Positions 4,944-63,949 of a DNA stretch of 64,000 bases are shown one piece after another. Made by a program: the position numbers and the translations under genes. Below the pieces are notes generated by a model. It was not told where the DNA came from. It ran no database searches and saw only the letters and a program-made list of their open reading frames with translations. Positions within the stretch are counted from its first letter, which is position 1, and each line of letters opens with the position of its first letter. The DNA is from a virus (taxonomy: Duplodnaviria > Caudoviricetes), in IMG/VR virus record IMGVR_UViG_3300029305_002470, positions 22,517 through 86,516 of that record; one strand, written 5' to 3'.

Positions 4944-6186
4944 TGTTATGTTCGTATAAGGTCGCAACGCTTATACCGTTCTCTTATGAACTGCTTATAT
5001 TTTCATATAAGACCAGACTATATGTTTTTCTTTTATTCTATATCTTTTATAATTTCACAATATTTATTATCTGTAGTACACAAATAATAAATAGCTTCTT
5101 GTAATTCTCCTATGGTTGGTGCTTCATAATTCCCTTTTATACGAATAATCTTAAATCCTTCTTGATATACAAATGCATCTCTATTAGCATCTTGCTTTTT
5201 TCTATTTTTATGCCAATACTGACCATCATATTCAATGTCAATCTTGCAACCATTGACATCTATCATACAATCCATACAAATTCTATCGTATATATATGAT
5301 GGATGTGCATTATTACCATATAAAGATATTAACATATCGCACATTATTCTTTCAACTTTAGATGTTGGATAATGACCATTGGCTAGTCTTGTTCGCCAAT
5401 ACTTATTACCAAACTCATCAGTTTGAGAATACCAATCTACACCATATTTTTTGCGCATAGTATTATGATATTTTTGTTTACTTGCAGGACATTGTATAGT
5501 ATATTCTACACCATATATATCCATCATAGACCTTTTAATCTTTTGTTTAATATCTTCGTTTTTAAAAACACAATTACACCCATATTTTTTTATATTAGTT
5601 TGTTGTGTCTTTAAACTTCGACATTTATAAGAAGAACAAGCGTCTATTGTGTCATCTTTATCATGTCTACTACGCCACTCTTTATATGTTTTTGTATACT
5701 CTTTACCACAAAAATCACATTTTACTGTTATTATTGCAGTACAAGATTTTGATAAATCATTTATATCAACTTCAAACTCATCACCACATTGTGTGAAACG
5801 ATATCCTAAATCCACATATCGTTTTTTATTAGCGTTATTCCATTTTAATAATGTTGTTTTACTTACTATCATTTTTAAATTCACTAATATATAATAAAAG
5901 AAATCAAATTTTTCCATTGCCATTAGCTTGCAATGTACTCCGACTCAATCGGATAGTCGTTGAAGGTCTTCCATATATTATAAATAATACTTAGGACTTT
6001 CCCTGCTGAACTTCCATTGTTGCTAAATACTTAGGATTTAACCTTATATTCATCTTGTATCTTTTTTCTGTTTTCACAACCATTCAGTTTATTGTTTCCA
6101 ATTACTGTTTAGGCATACAAGCTTTAGGATTTACCAGCAATTAACTTGAAGTACGTACCAATTACTTGATACGCAGAGCCTACTTA
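4944..6186 (-). mobile_element. Group I intron (IA-like) in terL, carrying an endonuclease ORF
   Basis: Read on the minus strand: P1 hairpin GAGT-AAGTAG-GCTC (6189-6176), TAATTGCTGGTAAATCCTAAAG, TTCAGCAGGG, R element TTCAACGACTA (5964-5954), S element CATATAGTCT (5024-5015), P9 hairpins. Boundaries are uncertain by a few nt. Confidence 0.85.
5033..5923 (-). CDS. Intron-encoded homing endonuclease, Vsr/EDxHD-like C-terminal nuclease with Zn-ribbon and KKYG repeats
   Basis: CDFCGKEY Zn motif, repeated N-x-KKYG units, C-terminal DIEYDGQYWH. Lies between the R and S elements. The true start may be the ATG at 5872. Confidence 0.75.
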   Translation of the reverse strand: MAMEKFDFFYYILVNLKMIVSKTTLLKWNNANKKRYVDLGYRFTQCGDEFEVDINDLSKSCTAIITVKCDFCGKEYTKTYKEWRSRHDKDDTIDACSSYKCRSLKTQQTNIKKYGCNCVFKNEDIKQKIKRSMMDIYGVEYTIQCPASKQKYHNTMRKKYGVDWYSQTDEFGNKYWRTRLANGHYPTSKVERIMCDMLISLYGNNAHPSYIYDRICMDCMIDVNGCKIDIEYDGQYWHKNRKKQDANRDAFVYQEGFKIIRIKGNYEAPTIGELQEAIYYLCTTDNKYCEIIKDIE

Positions 6187-9827: not shown

Positions 9828-12431
9828 TTAACACTGTCCAGATTTCTGTTCAGCATATATCTTACGCATGAACATCCTTTTATATTCTTTACGAGCAATA
9901 TGCGCACATTCTTCAGAACAATATTTTTTTTCTACATAATCTACGTCTTCAATCCTTGCTCCACATATAGGACATATACTTCCAAGAGCAGAAGAATTGC
10001 GTTGTATATTCTGATAGATTTCTTTTCCAAAACATTCCCATAATGTTTTTTTTGAACTATTTTTTCGTTGCACATATAAAAAATAAATTAATGTATCAAC
10101 AATAGTTTCTTGAGAAAAAGGTAATGCTAATAATTTCTTTTTTATCTGTTGATAAATATAACTATCATATTTCTTTGTGTTTAAATTATCTTTATCATCA
10201 ATAACTTTATAAAATTTATATTTATGTGAATTTAAATAATCATATGTTGTAACAATATCTTCATATATATCTTTATACAAATATTTTTTATCATGCAATA
10301 AAACACGGTAATCAAATTTACCTATACTTTTATTAAATTTAATTCTTACATTAGGGATAATATTTTCTAAATAATTAACGGCAGTGGGCTTCCACGATGT
10401 TATTTGATGCTCAGACTTATCTTTAGCATATTTAAAATAATACGGCAATAAATCTGTTGTATAACTTTTAATTATTTTATCTATATCATTTGGTCTTTTT
10501 ATTTTATACAGTGTTTTAGCGTAATCAATTACAAAATTATTTTCACATGTTAACCACTTAACAACATTGATTTCTCTATCTGTAATTTTTCCACTATTCC
10601 AAACCTTAGAAATGTTATTACTAATTATACCAATATTACCGCCAGTATAAGCTAATTCCAAACCATGAAATAAAGTATTGCCATTAATTTGTGATGGTTC
10701 AGCTTTTCGCATATTATAATATAATGGAACAATATTTTGCATATTACGTTTAGCTAAACGAATTAATTGTTTTTCTCTGACTACAAGACTTTTGTCTCCG
10801 TCAACATCAAATTGTAAAATTTTACTTATCAAATCATGACAACTCGTATAAACACATTTAGTATCAAACCATTTATCCGTCAAATCATTTTGCACATTTC
10901 TACGAATAGCATGTTCCTTATATAAATGTGGCGAACGCAAACAATCTAATTCTTCGCCATCTCTATATAAATTACAACTAATTTCACCTTTTGATAATAA
11001 ACCTTGTGGATTTTTATCTCCTAAAAATAACCATTCACAAAAAGCATAAAGGTCTGGTGCAAGAAAAGTATACTTACCATCAATCGCTAATTTACCAGCC
11101 TTACCCCATTTAACTAAACTACGCTTAACATCTTTAATAATATCTCTGCTATATTTATCTCGCATTAACTCAGGATATAACATTAAGCTCTTTTGAATAT
11201 AACTTGGACTTATATTCTCTTCTACCGCTCCAAGCAAACGCATTGTTGTTCTATAATCTTCACCAACATTTTTTATTTCTTCAACAGTACGTTTAGCTAG
11301 TGAACGCATTTCTCTCGGTTTAATATCAGTTAATGTTTGCAACATCTGATAATTAATACGAGCATTTGGTATAAATTCTTCCTCTTGATTTATACGACCT
11401 GCCGTACAACAATATTCTTTATACCATCTTTTATATTGTTCCCATGAATCATAATATTTCCACATTTTAAATTGTGATTTAGTAAATATATATTTAATAT
11501 CTTCTTTAAAAATATCATGTATATTACCATATATATCTTTAATAATACCACAATTACAATTAGGGTTCAAGGAATGTTCTTGTATAAATTTCCTAAAGTC
11601 AAATTTTACTAATAATCCTTTTATCCATGGAAGTCTAACCATAGTTGTTGTATCATCTAACATAATACCACAACCATCCATGTGTGGAATTAAAACATCC
11701 ATACATTGTCGTGTAATAGAATAATCAGTATCGTCTATATAATCAACTTCATCATTTACAAAGGTTTCGAAATCATCTACTACAATTGCTTTATCAATAT
11801 TAAAATCTTCCCAAACCTCTGTTGCAGAATTGGCTAAAGCATAATAAGCTAGAAATTTATTTACATTAACTCCACCACGGCGATTAATTTCTTCAATGCT
11901 TAATCCACACATCAATGTCTTTTCATATTGTTTTAATTTTTCTTCTTTTACTACTACAAATTTTTTTGTTCTTATTTGTCCTGCGCTTGCACTAAATAAT
12001 ACATATTTTTGTCCATTATATATAAAACCGTTTTTTATAATATCTTCTGCAACTTGAAAAAAATAAACTTGCACAATCATTATATCTTCAGTAAGTTCAT
12101 TTGTTTTACATTGAAATGTTCTTGTTAAAAATGATTCAAATATTGATACTACATTTCTATCATTAATACATTCAGTTCTTAATTCTCTTAATTGATTATT
12201 TTGTCTTGTTTGTTCAAATTCTTTATATAATTTATTTTTTTGATTATTAATATATTTATCTATTTTATTTAATTGATGTGAATATAATGAATCTCTTTTC
12301 TTTTTATTTTTAATTTTATTTCTTAAATAATATAATCTTACTAACTTATTATGTATATTCATTTCTTGCTGGTTATAAAAGCAAGCCGTATCCAACGAAT
12401 ACACATGTATCTGCTTTTCTAATCCAAGCAC
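9828..12431 (-). CDS. Single-subunit double-psi-barrel RNA polymerase (SPbeta YonO-like)
   Basis: 867 aa with SAGQIRTKK, DGCG, RSPH and the catalytic QFDVDGD (DxDGD) motif. Confidence 0.85.
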   Translation of the reverse strand: MLGLEKQIHVYSLDTACFYNQQEMNIHNKLVRLYYLRNKIKNKKKRDSLYSHQLNKIDKYINNQKNKLYKEFEQTRQNNQLRELRTECINDRNVVSIFESFLTRTFQCKTNELTEDIMIVQVYFFQVAEDIIKNGFIYNGQKYVLFSASAGQIRTKKFVVVKEEKLKQYEKTLMCGLSIEEINRRGGVNVNKFLAYYALANSATEVWEDFNIDKAIVVDDFETFVNDEVDYIDDTDYSITRQCMDVLIPHMDGCGIMLDDTTTMVRLPWIKGLLVKFDFRKFIQEHSLNPNCNCGIIKDIYGNIHDIFKEDIKYIFTKSQFKMWKYYDSWEQYKRWYKEYCCTAGRINQEEEFIPNARINYQMLQTLTDIKPREMRSLAKRTVEEIKNVGEDYRTTMRLLGAVEENISPSYIQKSLMLYPELMRDKYSRDIIKDVKRSLVKWGKAGKLAIDGKYTFLAPDLYAFCEWLFLGDKNPQGLLSKGEISCNLYRDGEELDCLRSPHLYKEHAIRRNVQNDLTDKWFDTKCVYTSCHDLISKILQFDVDGDKSLVVREKQLIRLAKRNMQNIVPLYYNMRKAEPSQINGNTLFHGLELAYTGGNIGIISNNISKVWNSGKITDREINVVKWLTCENNFVIDYAKTLYKIKRPNDIDKIIKSYTTDLLPYYFKYAKDKSEHQITSWKPTAVNYLENIIPNVRIKFNKSIGKFDYRVLLHDKKYLYKDIYEDIVTTYDYLNSHKYKFYKVIDDKDNLNTKKYDSYIYQQIKKKLLALPFSQETIVDTLIYFLYVQRKNSSKKTLWECFGKEIYQNIQRNSSALGSICPICGARIEDVDYVEKKYCSEECAHIARKEYKRMFMRKIYAEQKSGQC

Positions 12432-27980: not shown

Positions 27981-28774
27981 TGTTTGGATGATATGTTACT
28001 CAGAATTTACATAGTTTTTTAACGTAAATGGCGGTAATTTCAAGAGAAAGATGGATTATGATATAGTTGATTGTTTAAATAAATAAAATGTCTTAAAATC
28101 TTGATAGGTCAATATTTTTAATATGGTAAATGAGAAAAACAGTACAAAACGTACTGTTTTTTTATTGTGCTTGTTTTTAGGACATTGAATGTACGGTTTT
28201 TTACTGAATGTATTGTTTTTGGTGGTAAATGTAAAGTTTGTTTTACGTATGTAAAGTATTCTTTACATGGAATAATAGTTTGGAGATTGTGTGGAAAGAG
28301 GGTAGATTAGATGTGGAAATTTTGTAATATACAGGGATATTTAAATGTTGGAAAAGAGTTGGAATTTTAAGGGGTTGAGGGAATTTAGGTATATAGTTTA
28401 TTGCTGGCTGATTCATGTCTGATGACTGGTTTGGTATGGCTTCGAAGAACTTGAAGTTAGTTATCTCTAACTCGTTTGAAAAATACCCCCTCTTGCATAA
28501 AATTTTTGTGAAAAAACACAAAATAAGGGATAAAAAAATAGTGAAAATGATTATTTTCACTAAAATAATATATCATTTTATCGGTCAACTTGATTTTATC
28601 TTTTGTTCAAAATCACAAAAAATCAGCTTATATTGCACTGTTTTTTGTGTATTTTCACAATATAACGTGTTCTAATATGGCGTTGAATTTTGTGGTAAAA
28701 CACAAAAAAATCCTTAAAATTTGTGTAAAATACACAAAAAATATTGTATACATGTGTACCATGCAAGCGTATAA

Positions 28775-28890
28775 ATACAAGTATACTTGTATACAATAGC
28801 GTGTATACTTGTACACACAACACAACAATGTATACAATCAAGTAAATGTATATATGAATACATTCATCTGTATACTTGTATACATATGTA
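28775..28890. promoter_or_regulatory. GntR-family-like operator cluster (GTATACTTGTA x3, TTGTATACAA)
   Basis: 18-bp palindrome ATACAAGTATACTTGTAT at 28775-28792; GTATACTTGTA at 28781, 28803, 28870. Confidence 0.45.
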
Positions 28891-28904
28891 TATATATTCA
28901 TATA

Positions 28905-28931
28905 TTAGCACTCATTCATTGTGAGTGATAA
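28905..28931. promoter_or_regulatory. CIRCE element 1 (HrcA operator, one mismatch)
   Basis: TTAGCACTC-N9-GAGTGATAA. Confidence 0.85.
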
Positions 28932-28937
28932 CAATAA

Positions 28938-28964
28938 TTAGCACTCGTTTATATTGAGTGCTAA
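28938..28964. promoter_or_regulatory. CIRCE element 2 (perfect)
   Basis: TTAGCACTC-GTTTATATT-GAGTGCTAA. Confidence 0.95.
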
Positions 28965-28967
28965 CTA

Positions 28968-28994
28968 TTAGCACTCGTATTCAGTGAGTGCTAA
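28968..28994. promoter_or_regulatory. CIRCE element 3 (perfect)
   Basis: TTAGCACTC-GTATTCAGT-GAGTGCTAA. Confidence 0.95.
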
Positions 28995-29015
28995 TAGTTA
29001 AAAGTTTCACAATAT

Positions 29016-29031
29016 TGTTTCACGTGAAACA
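29016..29031. promoter_or_regulatory. parS site 1 (ParB/Spo0J binding)
   Basis: TGTTTCACGTGAAACA, perfect consensus palindrome. Confidence 0.9.
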
Positions 29032-29062
29032 TAACAAAATATTTTTATCTTTATTGTACCTT

Positions 29063-29078
29063 TGTTTCACGTGAAACA
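29063..29078. promoter_or_regulatory. parS site 2
   Basis: TGTTTCACGTGAAACA. Confidence 0.9.
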
Positions 29079-29585
29079 TTGTACCATTGTACTAATACAT
29101 TAATACAATAATATACATGTTAAAAAAATATCAATATTGTTGCTATACACAAATTATGAATGTTTCACGATATAAATTTTGTATGTTTCACACAAATAGT
29201 AGAATTTTTAACGAGAGTTTTAATAAACTAACTTTTGTGTTTCAGAACAAAAAATTTAAAAATTATTTGTGTATTCAATACAAAATTGATAAATTTTTAA
29301 CGCTATTTTCAGTATAAAAATGAAAAAAACATAAAAAAACAATTGTGTTGTAAACATAAAAAATTTAAAAAAAATTTGTGTAAATACACAAATAAAATAT
29401 AGCATGTCAGCAATACGATTTTATCATATTTTCAGAGCCTCAAAACGTTGAAATTTCAATGCTTCCAGCCTCAAAAATAGCAAAATGTTTTTTCAGTTTC
29501 CTTCATTATAACGCGTGTAAAGCCCTTCTTGAATTGTATTATTGTATTAATACAGTCATACAATAAAGTCGGTTTAAACTGACAA

Positions 29586-29613
29586 TTGACACAACTAAAA
29601 AAATTCTTAAAAT
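29586..29613 (+). promoter_or_regulatory. First early promoter
   Basis: TTGACA-N16-TAAAAT, flanked by two operator palindromes. Confidence 0.6.
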
Positions 29614-29695
29614 GATAATTGCAAGGCGGCAAAAAGTCCGCACATTCTCACATAGTCGGTTTAAACTGACAAATACAGAAAGGAAAGGTTACATT

Positions 29696-30316
29696 ATGAA
29701 AACTACAAACAACGCAAAGGTAAAGGTTACAACTCTTAACGCTCAGACAATTGAAATGCTCAACGTTCAGCTTGATATTATCAAATCAAAAGGTACAACG
29801 TCACTTAATGCTGATATTGCAAGGGCAAAGGCACTCTATACCATTAAAGATGCCGCACTCTATGAGTGCGACAATTGCAAGTCCTTTAAAGAATGGTATA
29901 ACGTAAAACATGACGGTACAATCTATGGTATTACGTACAAATCAGCTTGTATTCTTATCAATACATATGCTAACGTATGGTCACATAAAACATTTAAGGC
30001 ACTGCCTTTATCAATTGCGTGCCGTATGGCGTCAGCTTGCAAAAATGCTGACAATGTAAAAGCATGTGAAAGGCTTGTTGCGGAAGGTAAAATTAAGCCT
30101 GACATGACACAAAACGCCATAAATGATTTACTTAAGGCGGAAGGTATTGTAAAGGCAAAAACTGACAATTTGAGTGCGCCAGCACCAAAAACCGCTGACG
30201 CTGACAATGACACCGTAAAGGTTGCGCTTGCTATGGTCAACGCTTTTATGAAAAGCAATTGCAAGGATGAAACAATAATGGATAATTGGAACGTCATACT
30301 TGATGCGCTTAAGTAA
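29696..30316 (+). CDS. First early gene, hypothetical (weakly DUF3102-like)
   Basis: AGAAAGGAAAGG RBS before ATG 29696; higher GC than neighbours; has its own terminator. Confidence 0.75.
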   Translation: MKTTNNAKVKVTTLNAQTIEMLNVQLDIIKSKGTTSLNADIARAKALYTIKDAALYECDNCKSFKEWYNVKHDGTIYGITYKSACILINTYANVWSHKTFKALPLSIACRMASACKNADNVKACERLVAEGKIKPDMTQNAINDLLKAEGIVKAKTDNLSAPAPKTADADNDTVKVALAMVNAFMKSNCKDETIMDNWNVILDALK

Positions 30317-44732: not shown

Positions 44733-45545
44733 ATGAAAACATATTTAGATTTATTTTTAAATGAATATGAAAGTGCAGGAACAAGACGTAATTATAATGG
44801 TACAATTTCCGCCATGCTTAATGCAATCAATAAGGATATAAATAATATTACTAAAATTGACCTTGTTGAATATAAGAATACGTTTAAAAATTTGGCGGCG
44901 AGTACACAGGCGCAAAAAATTATTTGTATTAAATCTTATTTTAAATTTCTTTTTGATAATGATGTTATAGAATCTAATCCTGCTGAGAAATTATCCACGC
45001 CAAGAGTGGAGCATAAACCAAAAGATGCACTTACTACTGATGAGGCAATTATGTTAATGCATTATGGCAACAAAAGAGAACGTGCAATTATAGCAACATT
45101 TTTAAATACTGGTATTAGAGTGCAGGAATTAATAGATATAAAATTTGTAGATTATATAAAAGAACCAAGTAAAATGGTTTTAAAAACTAAGAGAGGTAAG
45201 TATCGTACTGTTTATTTAAATGATGATACAATCAAACTTATAAATGAATATCTTAAAGTACGTAAGGAAGGATGTGATAATCTTTTTGTAAGCAATCAGG
45301 GAACTCCATTATCAGAATATAGTTTAAATAACACATGGAAAAAGTTAGCAACTAAAGCTGGGATTGATAAACATATTACCAATCATAGTTTTAGGTCTAC
45401 ATTTGTAACCACTATTGCAAGAGAACACGGCATACTTATGGCACAGATGGCAGTTAATCATGCTAATATTGCGACCACAAGAATATATGTGCGTGGTATG
45501 GAAGATGAAGTTGAAGCTGTAGTTAGAGGTTTGAAAGTATGTTAG
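44733..45545 (+). CDS. Tyrosine recombinase (XerC/D-like)
   Basis: Complete catalytic set: TGIR, KTKRGK, HSFR, NH, TRIY. Confidence 0.92.
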   Translation: MKTYLDLFLNEYESAGTRRNYNGTISAMLNAINKDINNITKIDLVEYKNTFKNLAASTQAQKIICIKSYFKFLFDNDVIESNPAEKLSTPRVEHKPKDALTTDEAIMLMHYGNKRERAIIATFLNTGIRVQELIDIKFVDYIKEPSKMVLKTKRGKYRTVYLNDDTIKLINEYLKVRKEGCDNLFVSNQGTPLSEYSLNNTWKKLATKAGIDKHITNHSFRSTFVTTIAREHGILMAQMAVNHANIATTRIYVRGMEDEVEAVVRGLKVC

Positions 45546-62150: not shown

Positions 62151-62224
62151 TGGGGTATAGCGTAATGGTAGCGCAAGGGACTTTGACTCCCTATGTCTGT
62201 GTTCAACTCACAGTACCCCAGCCA
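62151..62224 (+). tRNA. tRNA-Gln(UUG)
   Basis: Cloverleaf, AGGGA-CTTTGAC-TCCCT, CCA end. Confidence 0.9.
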
Positions 62225-62263
62225 CATGGTAGCATAGCTCAGTTGGTAGAGCGGGTGGCTGTT

Positions 62264-62731
62264 TACTTGACCTTACTAAGTTTAATTAAAAAAACAAATG
62301 GATAGTAAACAAAAAGGAAATATTACTGAACTTGAAACAATGTTAGCTTTTTTAAAATTAGGTTATAATGTTTTAATTCCTTATGGAGATTGTGAACGTT
62401 ATGATTATGTTGTAGATGTAAAAGGTAATTTTATTCGAGTTCAAAGTAAAACATCACATTCTGATGATGAGGGAGCTTCTTTTAAATTTGGTGGAAGAAG
62501 CTGTAATCGAAAAGATGGTAAAATTATTCATCATCAGTATACTAAAGACGAAATTGATTATTTTGCAACAACATTTAATGGAAAATATTATTTAATTCCT
62601 GTGGAAGAATGTGGAGCAAATAAGAGACTTCGTATTCTTCCAACAAAAAATGGACAAGCTAAAGATATTACTTGGGCTAAAGATTATGAATTGGATGAGG
62701 TAGTTAAAACTTGGTAAGTTGATGTGTAAGC
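62264..62731 (+). mobile_element. Anticodon-loop insertion / intron encoding an endonuclease, no group I core
   Basis: Only 34 nt before and 14 nt after the ORF; the two insert ends base-pair with each other. Confidence 0.8.
62298..62717 (+). CDS. PD-(D/E)XK endonuclease (group I intron-associated, I-Ssp6803I-like family)
   Basis: KG-I-E------LK-GY-V--P-GD--RYD-VVD------RVQ-K...Y----IDYFA. Confidence 0.82.
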   Translation: MDSKQKGNITELETMLAFLKLGYNVLIPYGDCERYDYVVDVKGNFIRVQSKTSHSDDEGASFKFGGRSCNRKDGKIIHHQYTKDEIDYFATTFNGKYYLIPVEECGANKRLRILPTKNGQAKDITWAKDYELDEVVKTW

Positions 62732-62771
62732 AACCACTGTGTCCTAGGTTCGAGTCCTAGTGTTACCGCCA

Positions 62772-63045
62772 AAGACAGTTGATACTGTCTTGCAAATATT
62801 ATAAACAACAATGTAAATTAAAGTGGATGTTAACTTAAACTTTAAAGAGAAACGCTTGACGACCCAAGTTGGTTAAATCTCGGTAGCCAATACAACAGTA
62901 GCGCATAGTACAAAAATTTCGACTATATAGCCGCAAGTCGTGGAAGAAAAATTTCGAAGTTGTTTATAACTATTAACGTCCAGTCTAGCTCAAGACGTAA
63001 AATTATTCTTGATAATACTTGAAGGCTAGTAGAGAGTATTATCAA
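62772..63045 (+). ncRNA. Unassigned structured RNA within the tRNA array
   Basis: Long-range stem TTATAAACAAC/GTTGTTTATAA (62799-62809 with 62959-62969) and two further hairpins with complementary loops. Confidence 0.4.
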
Positions 63046-63049
63046 TTAT

Positions 63050-63126
63050 TGCGGAGTGGTAGCAGTGGTTAGCTCGTCAGGCTCATAACCTGAAGGTCAT
63101 AAGTTCGAATCTTATCTCCGCAACCA
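63050..63126 (+). tRNA. tRNA-Met(CAU), initiator-like
   Basis: TCAGG-CTCATAA-CCTGA, CCA end. Confidence 0.88.
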
Positions 63127-63131
63127 ATTAT

Positions 63132-63208
63132 GCACAGGTAGTTCAGTAGGTTAGAGCAGTCGTCTTATAAGCGACTTGTCGTTGGTTCAAGTCCAACCCT
63201 GTGTACCA
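63132..63208 (+). tRNA. tRNA-Ile(UAU)
   Basis: GTCGT-CTTATAA-GCGAC, CCA end. Confidence 0.88.
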
Positions 63209-63212
63209 ATAT

Positions 63213-63289
63213 GCTCCTGTAGACCAATTGGCAGAGTCATCCGATTTAAGCTCGGAACAGTGTGGGTTCGAATCCCACTAGGAGTACCA
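63213..63289 (+). tRNA. tRNA-Leu(UAA), short variable loop
   Basis: TCCGA-TTTAAGC-TCGGA, CCA end. Confidence 0.85.
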
Positions 63290-63294
63290 ATTAT

Positions 63295-63369
63295 TGGCGA
63301 GTAGTCCAATGGCAGAGACTAGGGTCGCTACCGAATAGTAACAAGTTCGAATCTTGTTCTCGCCAACCA
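63295..63369 (+). tRNA. tRNA-like gene with an aberrant anticodon arm (undetermined)
   Basis: Acceptor TGGCGAG/CTCGCCA, D and T arms and CCA are intact; the anticodon stem does not form canonically. Confidence 0.6.
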
Positions 63370-63372
63370 TAT

Positions 63373-63449
63373 GGGTTACTATCCCAATCGGCAGAGGAAG
63401 TAGGCTCAAACCCTATAAAGTCTGGGTTCGAATCCCAGGTGACCCACCA
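63373..63449 (+). tRNA. tRNA-Leu(CAA), short variable loop
   Basis: GTAGG-CTCAAAC-CCTAT, CCA end. Confidence 0.85.
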
Positions 63450-63453
63450 ATAT

Positions 63454-63528
63454 GTTCAGATAGCTCAGTGGTAGAGCGTTGGGTTGAAGCCCCATGCGTC
63501 ATAGGTTCAAATCCTATTCTGAACACCA
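63454..63528 (+). tRNA. tRNA-Phe(GAA)
   Basis: TGGG-TTGAAGC-CCCA, CCA end. Confidence 0.88.
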
Positions 63529-63531
63529 TCA

Positions 63532-63614
63532 AAGCCACATACAGCAAATTTAAATGTATGGTTACAAATTTTGCTTTGAAAACAAATTAATGGGTTCAAT
63601 TCCCAATGTGGCTT
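63532..63614 (+). ncRNA. tRNA-like element (pseudo-tRNA)
   Basis: AAGCCACAT/ATGTGGCTT stem, ACAGCAA in place of a D arm, T-like arm TGGG-TTCAATT-CCCA; no CCA. Confidence 0.5.
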
Positions 63615-63620
63615 GTTTAT

Positions 63621-63697
63621 GCACCCTTAGTTCATTAGGTTAGAACGCTGTGCTGATAACGCAGAGGTGCTTGGTTCAAATCCAAGAGGGTGTACCA
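63621..63697 (+). tRNA. tRNA-Ile(GAU)
   Basis: CTGTG-CTGATAA-CGCAG, CCA end. Confidence 0.9.
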
Positions 63698-63701
63698 ATG
63701 T

Positions 63702-63776
63702 GTGGGTTATAGTCTAATGGTAAGACGCAAGATTGTGGCTCTTGTCATCTGAGTTCGATTCTCAGTAATCCACCCA
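63702..63776 (+). tRNA. tRNA-His(GUG)
   Basis: CAAGA-TTGTGGC-TCTTG, G-1:C73, CCA end. Confidence 0.9.
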
Positions 63777-63795
63777 ATCTAATTAATTAGACTAT

Positions 63796-63869
63796 GTGGG
63801 TGTAAGCTAAAGGAAAACGGTATGCTTTGGGAGCATACATTGTGAGTTCGAGTCTCACCTCCCGCACCA
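63796..63869 (+). tRNA. tRNA-Pro(UGG)
   Basis: TATGC-TTTGGGA-GCATA, CCA end; one acceptor mismatch. Confidence 0.82.
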
Positions 63870-63873
63870 ATAT

Positions 63874-63949
63874 GGGGCTATAGCTCAGTTGGGAGAGCAC
63901 ATGCCTTGCACGCATGGGGTCGAGGGTTCAAGTCCCTCTAGCTCCACCA
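63874..63949 (+). tRNA. tRNA-Ala(UGC)
   Basis: GGGGCTA acceptor with G3:U70, CATGC-CTTGCAC-GCATG, CCA end. Confidence 0.92.

Follow-up and report, generated by a model that had tools for sequence, protein, structure and literature searches.

A pair of perfect parS sites in a gene-free island

A repeat-rich island of 1.7 kb without credible genes (27984-29695, delimited from an ORF map, a terminator scan and repeat families) separates an accessory gene block from an early gene block in the window, by which we mean the whole 64,000-nucleotide stretch analysed, bases 22517-86516 of a linear viral record of 86,516 bases that is estimated to be 71% complete. The island has a terminator at its start (28133-28163) and at its end a strong sigma-70-like promoter (TTGACA-16-TAAAAT; 29586-29613, + strand), which serves the first early gene (29696-30316, + strand), a 206-aa reading frame that heads a long block of small early genes. 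Within the island lie two perfect copies of the palindrome TGTTTCACGTGAAACA, parS-1 at 29016-29031 and parS-2 at 29063-29078, 47 bp apart from centre to centre and 620 bp upstream of the first early gene. The chromosomal parS consensus is the site of ParB/Spo0J, which recruits SMC in Firmicutes. The consensus palindrome TGTTNCACGTGAAACA is matched at 16 of 16 positions twice, in non-coding DNA, and these two are the only sites with two or fewer mismatches in the window and in the whole record, whereas base composition predicts 2.8e-5 perfect sites per 86.5-kb record. A preliminary description had placed two perfect host-type sites at exactly these coordinates and equated them with the chromosomal consensus; both statements hold.

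Three additional parS heptamers occur in the island against 0.18 expected, GTTTCAC at 29004-29010, TGTTTCAC(G) at 29161-29168 and TGTTTCAC at 29184-29191, all on the + strand, which bears out the degenerate half-sites previously claimed near 29003, 29161 and 29184. Two of the three half-sites are conserved in the relative L289, that at 29161 being kept at its position 233 and that at 29184 lying in a 19-mer, TTGTATGTTTCACACAAAT, common to both phages. As parS-1 and parS-2 have only the 18-mer TTGTTTCACGTGAAACAT in common and differ in their flanks, the pair is no simple tandem duplication. Each end of the record is at least 35 kb away from the pair.

Several palindrome families crowd the island, some of them with no known binder. 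Three CIRCE-type inverted repeats (TTAGCACTC-N9-GAGTGCTAA; 28905-28995) lie just upstream of parS-1, and two copies of a phage palindrome, AGTCGGTTTAAACTGAC, flank the first early promoter (29567-29585 and 29654-29672). At 0.5-1.3 kb from the promoter of the first early gene, the parS sites do not suggest themselves as its operator. A DnaA-dependent origin in the island was rejected for want of any DnaA box there. Control by Spo0A in the style of phi29 was likewise rejected, with seven Spo0A boxes (TGTCGAA) in the record against 6.2 expected and none within the island.

Other features of the island were noted in their own right. The palindrome GTCrGTTyrAACyGAC at the first early promoter, compared among the window and L158, L159, L289, L290 and L315, varies across lineages by symmetric changes together with G:T-type asymmetries, a pattern that an RNA hairpin fits at least as well as a protein operator. 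The islands of relatives contain a composite unit, (A)CGTGAAAC-N3-TTGAAATTTCAA(CG), in which a parS half-site is joined to another palindrome, in two to four copies each (L158 2483-2510; L315 9386-9410; L290 293-320); the window retains AAACGTTGAAATTTCAATG at 29438-29468, with the half-site missing. Assembly breaks also cluster in the island: many independent assemblies (L160, L161, L292, L294, L317-L321 and further records) stop at differing points, 67-986 bp before the first early gene. A hypervariable, repeat-rich region fits these varied breakpoints better than one physical genome end, although the island may possibly lie near a genome end.

The gene content of the record indicates a large SPbeta-like phage of anaerobic Bacillota, with a G+C content of ~29%. 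A YonO-type single-subunit RNA polymerase (867 aa; 9828-12431, - strand) shares 46-49% identity with its counterparts in SPbeta, phi3T and Clostridium phage D-1873, and the nearest matches of the DnaE polymerase are found on a Clostridium tetani plasmid (54%) and in Clostridioides phage pCD1602_4 (51%). An anaerobic ribonucleotide reductase, Gram-positive-type lysins and a ten-tRNA array (62151-63949, + strand) complete this assignment, the array lying at the right end of the record, where the contig ends inside or just after it. The replication module is headed by an Xer-like tyrosine recombinase (270 aa; 44733-45545, + strand) with an intact R..HxxR..H..Y signature and its nearest relatives, at 35%, in ~100-kb Enterocloster phages; a role as integrase or as dimer resolvase is conceivable. 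The phages nearest by YonO and DnaE infect Bacillus, Clostridium and Clostridioides, many of them being plasmid prophages, and the host is probably a clostridial spore-former. Many ORFans, Lar and a SAM-lyase-like protein are encoded in the early region. Beyond the left end of our record, the sequence of a near-identical phage continues through a tail/lysin region into genes for a DUF6273 protein, an RVT_1 reverse transcriptase and an XkdX-like product, an order that suggests a diversity-generating retroelement near tail-fibre genes.

Conservation in relatives and parS on other viral contigs

Relatives were traced through homologues, both exact and distant, of the first early gene, and the contigs carrying these were inspected. 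In four diverged lineages, with first early genes 55-100% identical, one or two consensus parS sites occupy the equivalent island. The identical phages L291 and L293, from other samples, have an identical island, parS-1 included. L289 (first early gene 73% identical) has one perfect parS, to which parS-2 aligns together with its flank TTGTAnCATTGTAnTAATACATTAATACAA, L158 (58% identical) carries CGTTCCACGTGAAACA, and L315/L316 (55% identical; an 83-kb scaffold) has two perfect sites 43 bp apart. Between lineages the spacers and flanks of parS are unrelated and the remaining palindrome blocks are differently ordered, yet parS 18- to 21-mers rank among the longest exact words common to the islands. 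Retention of the motif in four lineages despite unrelated surroundings is good evidence that the parS sequence is under purifying selection. Wherever the contigs of a lineage extend over the relevant part of the island, parS and the first early gene are linked; the remaining relative contigs end before the expected position of parS and were counted neither way. The L315 island has the parS pair and no CIRCE repeat, which argues that parS is not merely one item of a fixed set of sponge sites.

Megablast of the region against a phage collection gave no match, and no relatives were found by single-protein and alignment-based searches of IMG/VR with neighbouring genes. A 24-mer island probe had no match in IMG/VR, while a 17-mer island probe gave chance matches only in metagenomes. 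An alignment-based search of 185,579 species genomes was also without a match, so no prophage copy is known.

A survey of IMG/VR identified at least 119 viral contigs with a perfect consensus parS (L003-L121). These contigs, and the 31 with adjacent CIRCE arms, were considered as relatives and rejected, being unrelated to the phage. Among the larger of them, 30 of 32 are without ParB_N, and several multi-site contigs are phi29-like (L015, L030, L048, L066, L071 and L076, with two or three parS each). Orphan host-type parS may thus be common in phages. Duplicated coding repeats are false positives to be excluded from such surveys; one apparent parS pair 60 bp apart, at 6704-6779 of L061, was rejected, as it stems from a 60-bp tandem repeat within an ORF of 437 aa. 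A full-text literature search on phage-borne parS, ParB and spores yielded a single review, without any primary report.

Partition genes and the first early gene

Searches of the 86.5-kb record, itself ~71% complete, with ParB_N (PF02195), AAA_31, CbiA and Tubulin gave no match while the controls matched, and hence no Walker-type ParA was detected by AAA_31 or CbiA; StbA_N (ParM) also gave no match, although here the control too was without any match. When 65 small ORFs were compared with Pfam, no helix-turn-helix, repressor or partition family was found, and they included no recognisable lysogeny gene such as a repressor or antirepressor. The earlier statement that the window holds neither parA nor parB is therefore correct for canonical genes, and extending the search to the rest of the record, as had been proposed, did not alter this. 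It does not extend to the adjacent first early gene, for which a ParB-type fold is predicted.

Related genomes were searched in the same manner. ParB_N is absent from SPbeta, phi3T, Perkons, pCD1602_4, C. tetani pKHSU-144316-041-2, C. perfringens pCP_P201 and a complete 151.6-kb IMG/VR genome reached through DnaE (G001), the last being useless for synteny as only few genes are shared. A ParB_N-like ORF is present in c-st and D-1873, the only such cases among eight related records and G001, and these two have no parS; D-1873 carries TubZ/TubR. As a separate observation, the Psychrobacillus phage Perkons (MT325768.1; L302/L305), an SPbeta-like phage, has a perfect palindrome, TGTTCCACGTGGAACA, at 5194-5209 in an early intergenic gap before ardA, 5 kb from its left terminal repeat.

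An AlphaFold2 model of the 206-aa product of the first early gene (mean pLDDT 83.7, built on 11 sequences) predicts a DNA-binding domain of the ParB/Spo0J/Noc/KorB/SopB type at residues ~14-153, preceded by a short disordered N-tail rich in Lys and followed by a helical hairpin at the C-terminus (167-206). As only a 13-residue disordered tail precedes the DNA-binding domain, the predicted protein has no ParB_N CTPase/clamp domain. That domain enables the sliding of true ParB proteins, SMC recruitment and full partnership with ParA.

Foldseek with this model returned nothing significant, with ParB and Noc entries recurring among the weak matches. When these matches were re-aligned with VIA, the top 11 were all ParB/Spo0J/Noc DNA-binding domains, with Z scores of 6.1-8.2. 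The best was 1vz0 (Z 8.2, rmsd 3.2 A over 110 aa), Noc reached Z 7.5, and the first unrelated entry appeared at Z 4.9. A second, independent structure search against 48,161 representative chains placed Thermus Spo0J first (Z 7.6), followed by ParB-parS (6.7) and KorB (6.3 and 6.2), with SopB (5.6 and 5.1), VirB and P1 ParB (4.0) lower; ParB, KorB and SopB are all within the top 10. Values of 6-8 are middling for an all-helical model, as the tool itself warns that a common helical arrangement can produce them, and Raf1 scores similarly in the wide search (6.1-6.3).

Sequence methods do not link the protein to ParB: Pfam, a PDB-sequence profile and hhalign found no connection, and in an hhalign comparison a ParB_N protein taken from one viral contig showed no similarity. 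The family is tiny and confined to phages, with 13 matches among 1.84 billion representative proteins, and no Pfam domain was found in those 13 homologues. A BFVD fold search yielded uncharacterised phage proteins and DUF3102 only. Because nearly all branches of the ParB superfamily top an unbiased search, and because the gene adjoins parS wherever this can be seen, we consider it likely that the modelled protein has a ParB-type DNA-binding fold.

Possible roles of the locus and comparison with known systems

The parS sites are probably functional ParB-type centromere sites, maintained by selection; the protein that binds them, and the physiological outcome, we infer from the sites, their conservation, the gene linkage and the fold prediction. 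Like the small phage phi29, this phage probably plugs into, or interferes with, the host chromosome-partition machinery. As a gene for a predicted ParB-type protein adjoins the sites, parS may be served or contested by the phage's own product. Our main reading, held tentatively at a probability of roughly 0.45, is that parS and this headless ParB-like early protein constitute a phage module that couples the genome to, or contests, the host ParB-ParA-SMC apparatus. The first early product would be a dimeric helix-turn-helix DNA binder of ParB fold without an N-terminal CTPase/clamp. Host ParB (Spo0J) should also nucleate on the phage parS, as the sites equal the chromosomal consensus, and the module would tie the phage genome to the host apparatus. 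Cells in a non-lytic or carrier state, or cells that sporulate, could then position or carry the phage DNA, as happens for phi29 via Spo0J, and the phage protein may occupy, modulate or replace host ParB at parS.

Several observations weigh against such a module. Raf1 scores as high as the ParB proteins, the fold match is middling, and no sequence method connects the protein with ParB; the early protein could bind another island palindrome instead. The lack of repressor-type genes, and of any copy among the 185,579 species genomes, likewise speaks against an established lysogenic or plasmid state.

The preliminary description had proposed that the phage borrows host ParB-SMC or titrates ParB. 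Perfect, non-coding, conserved sites, the absence of canonical parAB and the precedent of phi29 all favour this idea, while its premise that nothing ParB-like lies nearby is not borne out as worded. The phi29 genome has five parS sites, which serve host Spo0J, and encodes no ParB; Spo0J takes part in the trapping of that genome in the spore, and Spo0A boxes silence the lytic cycle (PMC2731898; PMC9437464; Meijer et al. 2005 via PMC2731898). Our rescan of phi29 found four perfect TGTTTCACGTGGAACA sites. One parS site together with the chromosomal par operon stabilises an otherwise unstable plasmid (PMC7022226).

The borrowing part of that proposal, taken alone, follows the phi29 model: Spo0J would load on the phage parS, spread and recruit SMC and ParA, the neighbouring gene being unrelated to parS, and phage DNA would segregate with host origins into daughter cells or forespores. 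We regard this as rather unlikely to be the whole explanation. It accounts for the host-type consensus of the sites and agrees with phi29, which has four perfect parS and no ParB (PMC2731898). It is also in keeping with the 30 of 32 larger parS contigs that lack ParB_N, several of the multi-site ones being phi29-like, and with the spore-forming hosts and many plasmid prophages among YonO/DnaE relatives. However, it leaves a gene of predicted ParB fold beside the sites unexplained, wherever that part of the island is visible; the Spo0A boxes are not enriched, and, one tyrosine recombinase apart, no lysogeny or carrier-state genes were seen.

An early blockade of the host is a different outcome that we consider unlikely. 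Minutes after infection, the headless ParB would act as a dominant-negative roadblock on chromosomal parS, shutting off ParB loading, SMC recruitment and sporulation (via Soj), while the phage parS buffers or targets the protein or tethers phage DNA. If true, the protein would be the first inhibitor by which a virus targets the bacterial centromere.

A broader form of antagonism, quite improbable in our estimation, treats the sites as decoys: multiplying phage parS would titrate host ParB, and/or the headless protein would block chromosomal parS, disturbing SMC loading, segregation and the initiation of sporulation (Soj, Sda), with parS as part of a multi-operator sponge island next to CIRCE. 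The gene-free island is indeed full of other palindromes, three CIRCE elements included, and the early region, with its Lar, SAM-lyase-like and ORFan products, resembles one devoted to host take-over and anti-restriction. Loss of Spo0J blocks sporulation, acting through Soj (PMC7022226). Two sites per genome would nevertheless make a weak sponge unless ParB spreads extensively, and a pure antagonist protein would have no need of parS on the phage.

A conventional phage-plasmid ParABS system, with parA and parB in the unsequenced ~29%, is very improbable. In its favour, completeness is estimated at only 71%, several plasmid prophages are found among the relatives, and the intact Xer-like recombinase could resolve plasmid dimers. 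Yet par sites normally adjoin parAB, whereas these lie at least 35 kb from the record ends, and plasmid and phage ParBs normally use their own site and not the chromosomal consensus. The absence of ParB_N from seven related genomes, and the use of TubZ/TubR by D-1873, also tell against it. That the palindrome is the operator of an unrelated regulator, or a product of chance or duplication, is scarcely credible: no binder is known for other palindromes of the island and the L061 pair is a duplicated coding repeat, but a 16/16 match occurs twice in non-coding DNA, is conserved despite unrelated flanks and has a gene of predicted ParB fold adjacent.

The module that we favour has partial counterparts among known systems. 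It resembles phi29 in that host-consensus parS sites reside on a phage lacking a canonical ParB; in phi29 they serve for riding the segregation machinery of the host. However, phi29 is a 19-kb protein-primed podovirus with five dispersed parS and with Spo0A boxes, whereas the gene-free island of this ~120-kb SPbeta-like phage (YonO, DnaE) holds two closely spaced sites and further half-sites, with no Spo0A-box enrichment and an adjacent gene of predicted ParB fold. To our knowledge, viral exploitation of a host centromere system has been documented essentially for the phi29 family only. The present case would add large SPbeta-like phages that infect anaerobic gut Bacillota, and as most parS-bearing viral contigs checked have no ParB, such exploitation may be widespread.

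With Soj-Spo0J-parS of Bacillota, the locus shares an identical 16-bp site, and the predicted fold of the neighbouring product resembles the central domain of Spo0J/ParB. In contrast, no ParA was seen here, the protein has no ParB_N CTPase, the module for clamping, sliding and SMC loading, and the locus is viral and not near oriC. A centromere-like repeat beside the gene of a DNA binder also recalls P1 ParAB-parS, N15/F SopAB-sopC, RK2 KorB-OB and the TubZRC systems of c-st/D-1873. Whereas those have element-specific sites, full-length CTPase ParBs and a cognate NTPase, the phage combines a host-consensus site with a predicted headless protein and no NTPase partner was seen. Noc and VirB likewise use a ParB-type DNA-binding domain outside classical partition, but they keep the CTPase domain and have diverged sites, while the phage protein is without the CTPase and the nearby parS is undiverged. 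Phage-borne, host-type parS is thus already known. What appears to be new is the class of phage, a conserved pair of closely spaced sites within an island of many operators and, most of all, a neighbouring gene for a CTPase-less protein of predicted ParB fold. As a candidate natural ParB-domain protein without the CTPase switch, it would offer a tool and test case for separating parS occupancy, clamp loading and SMC recruitment.
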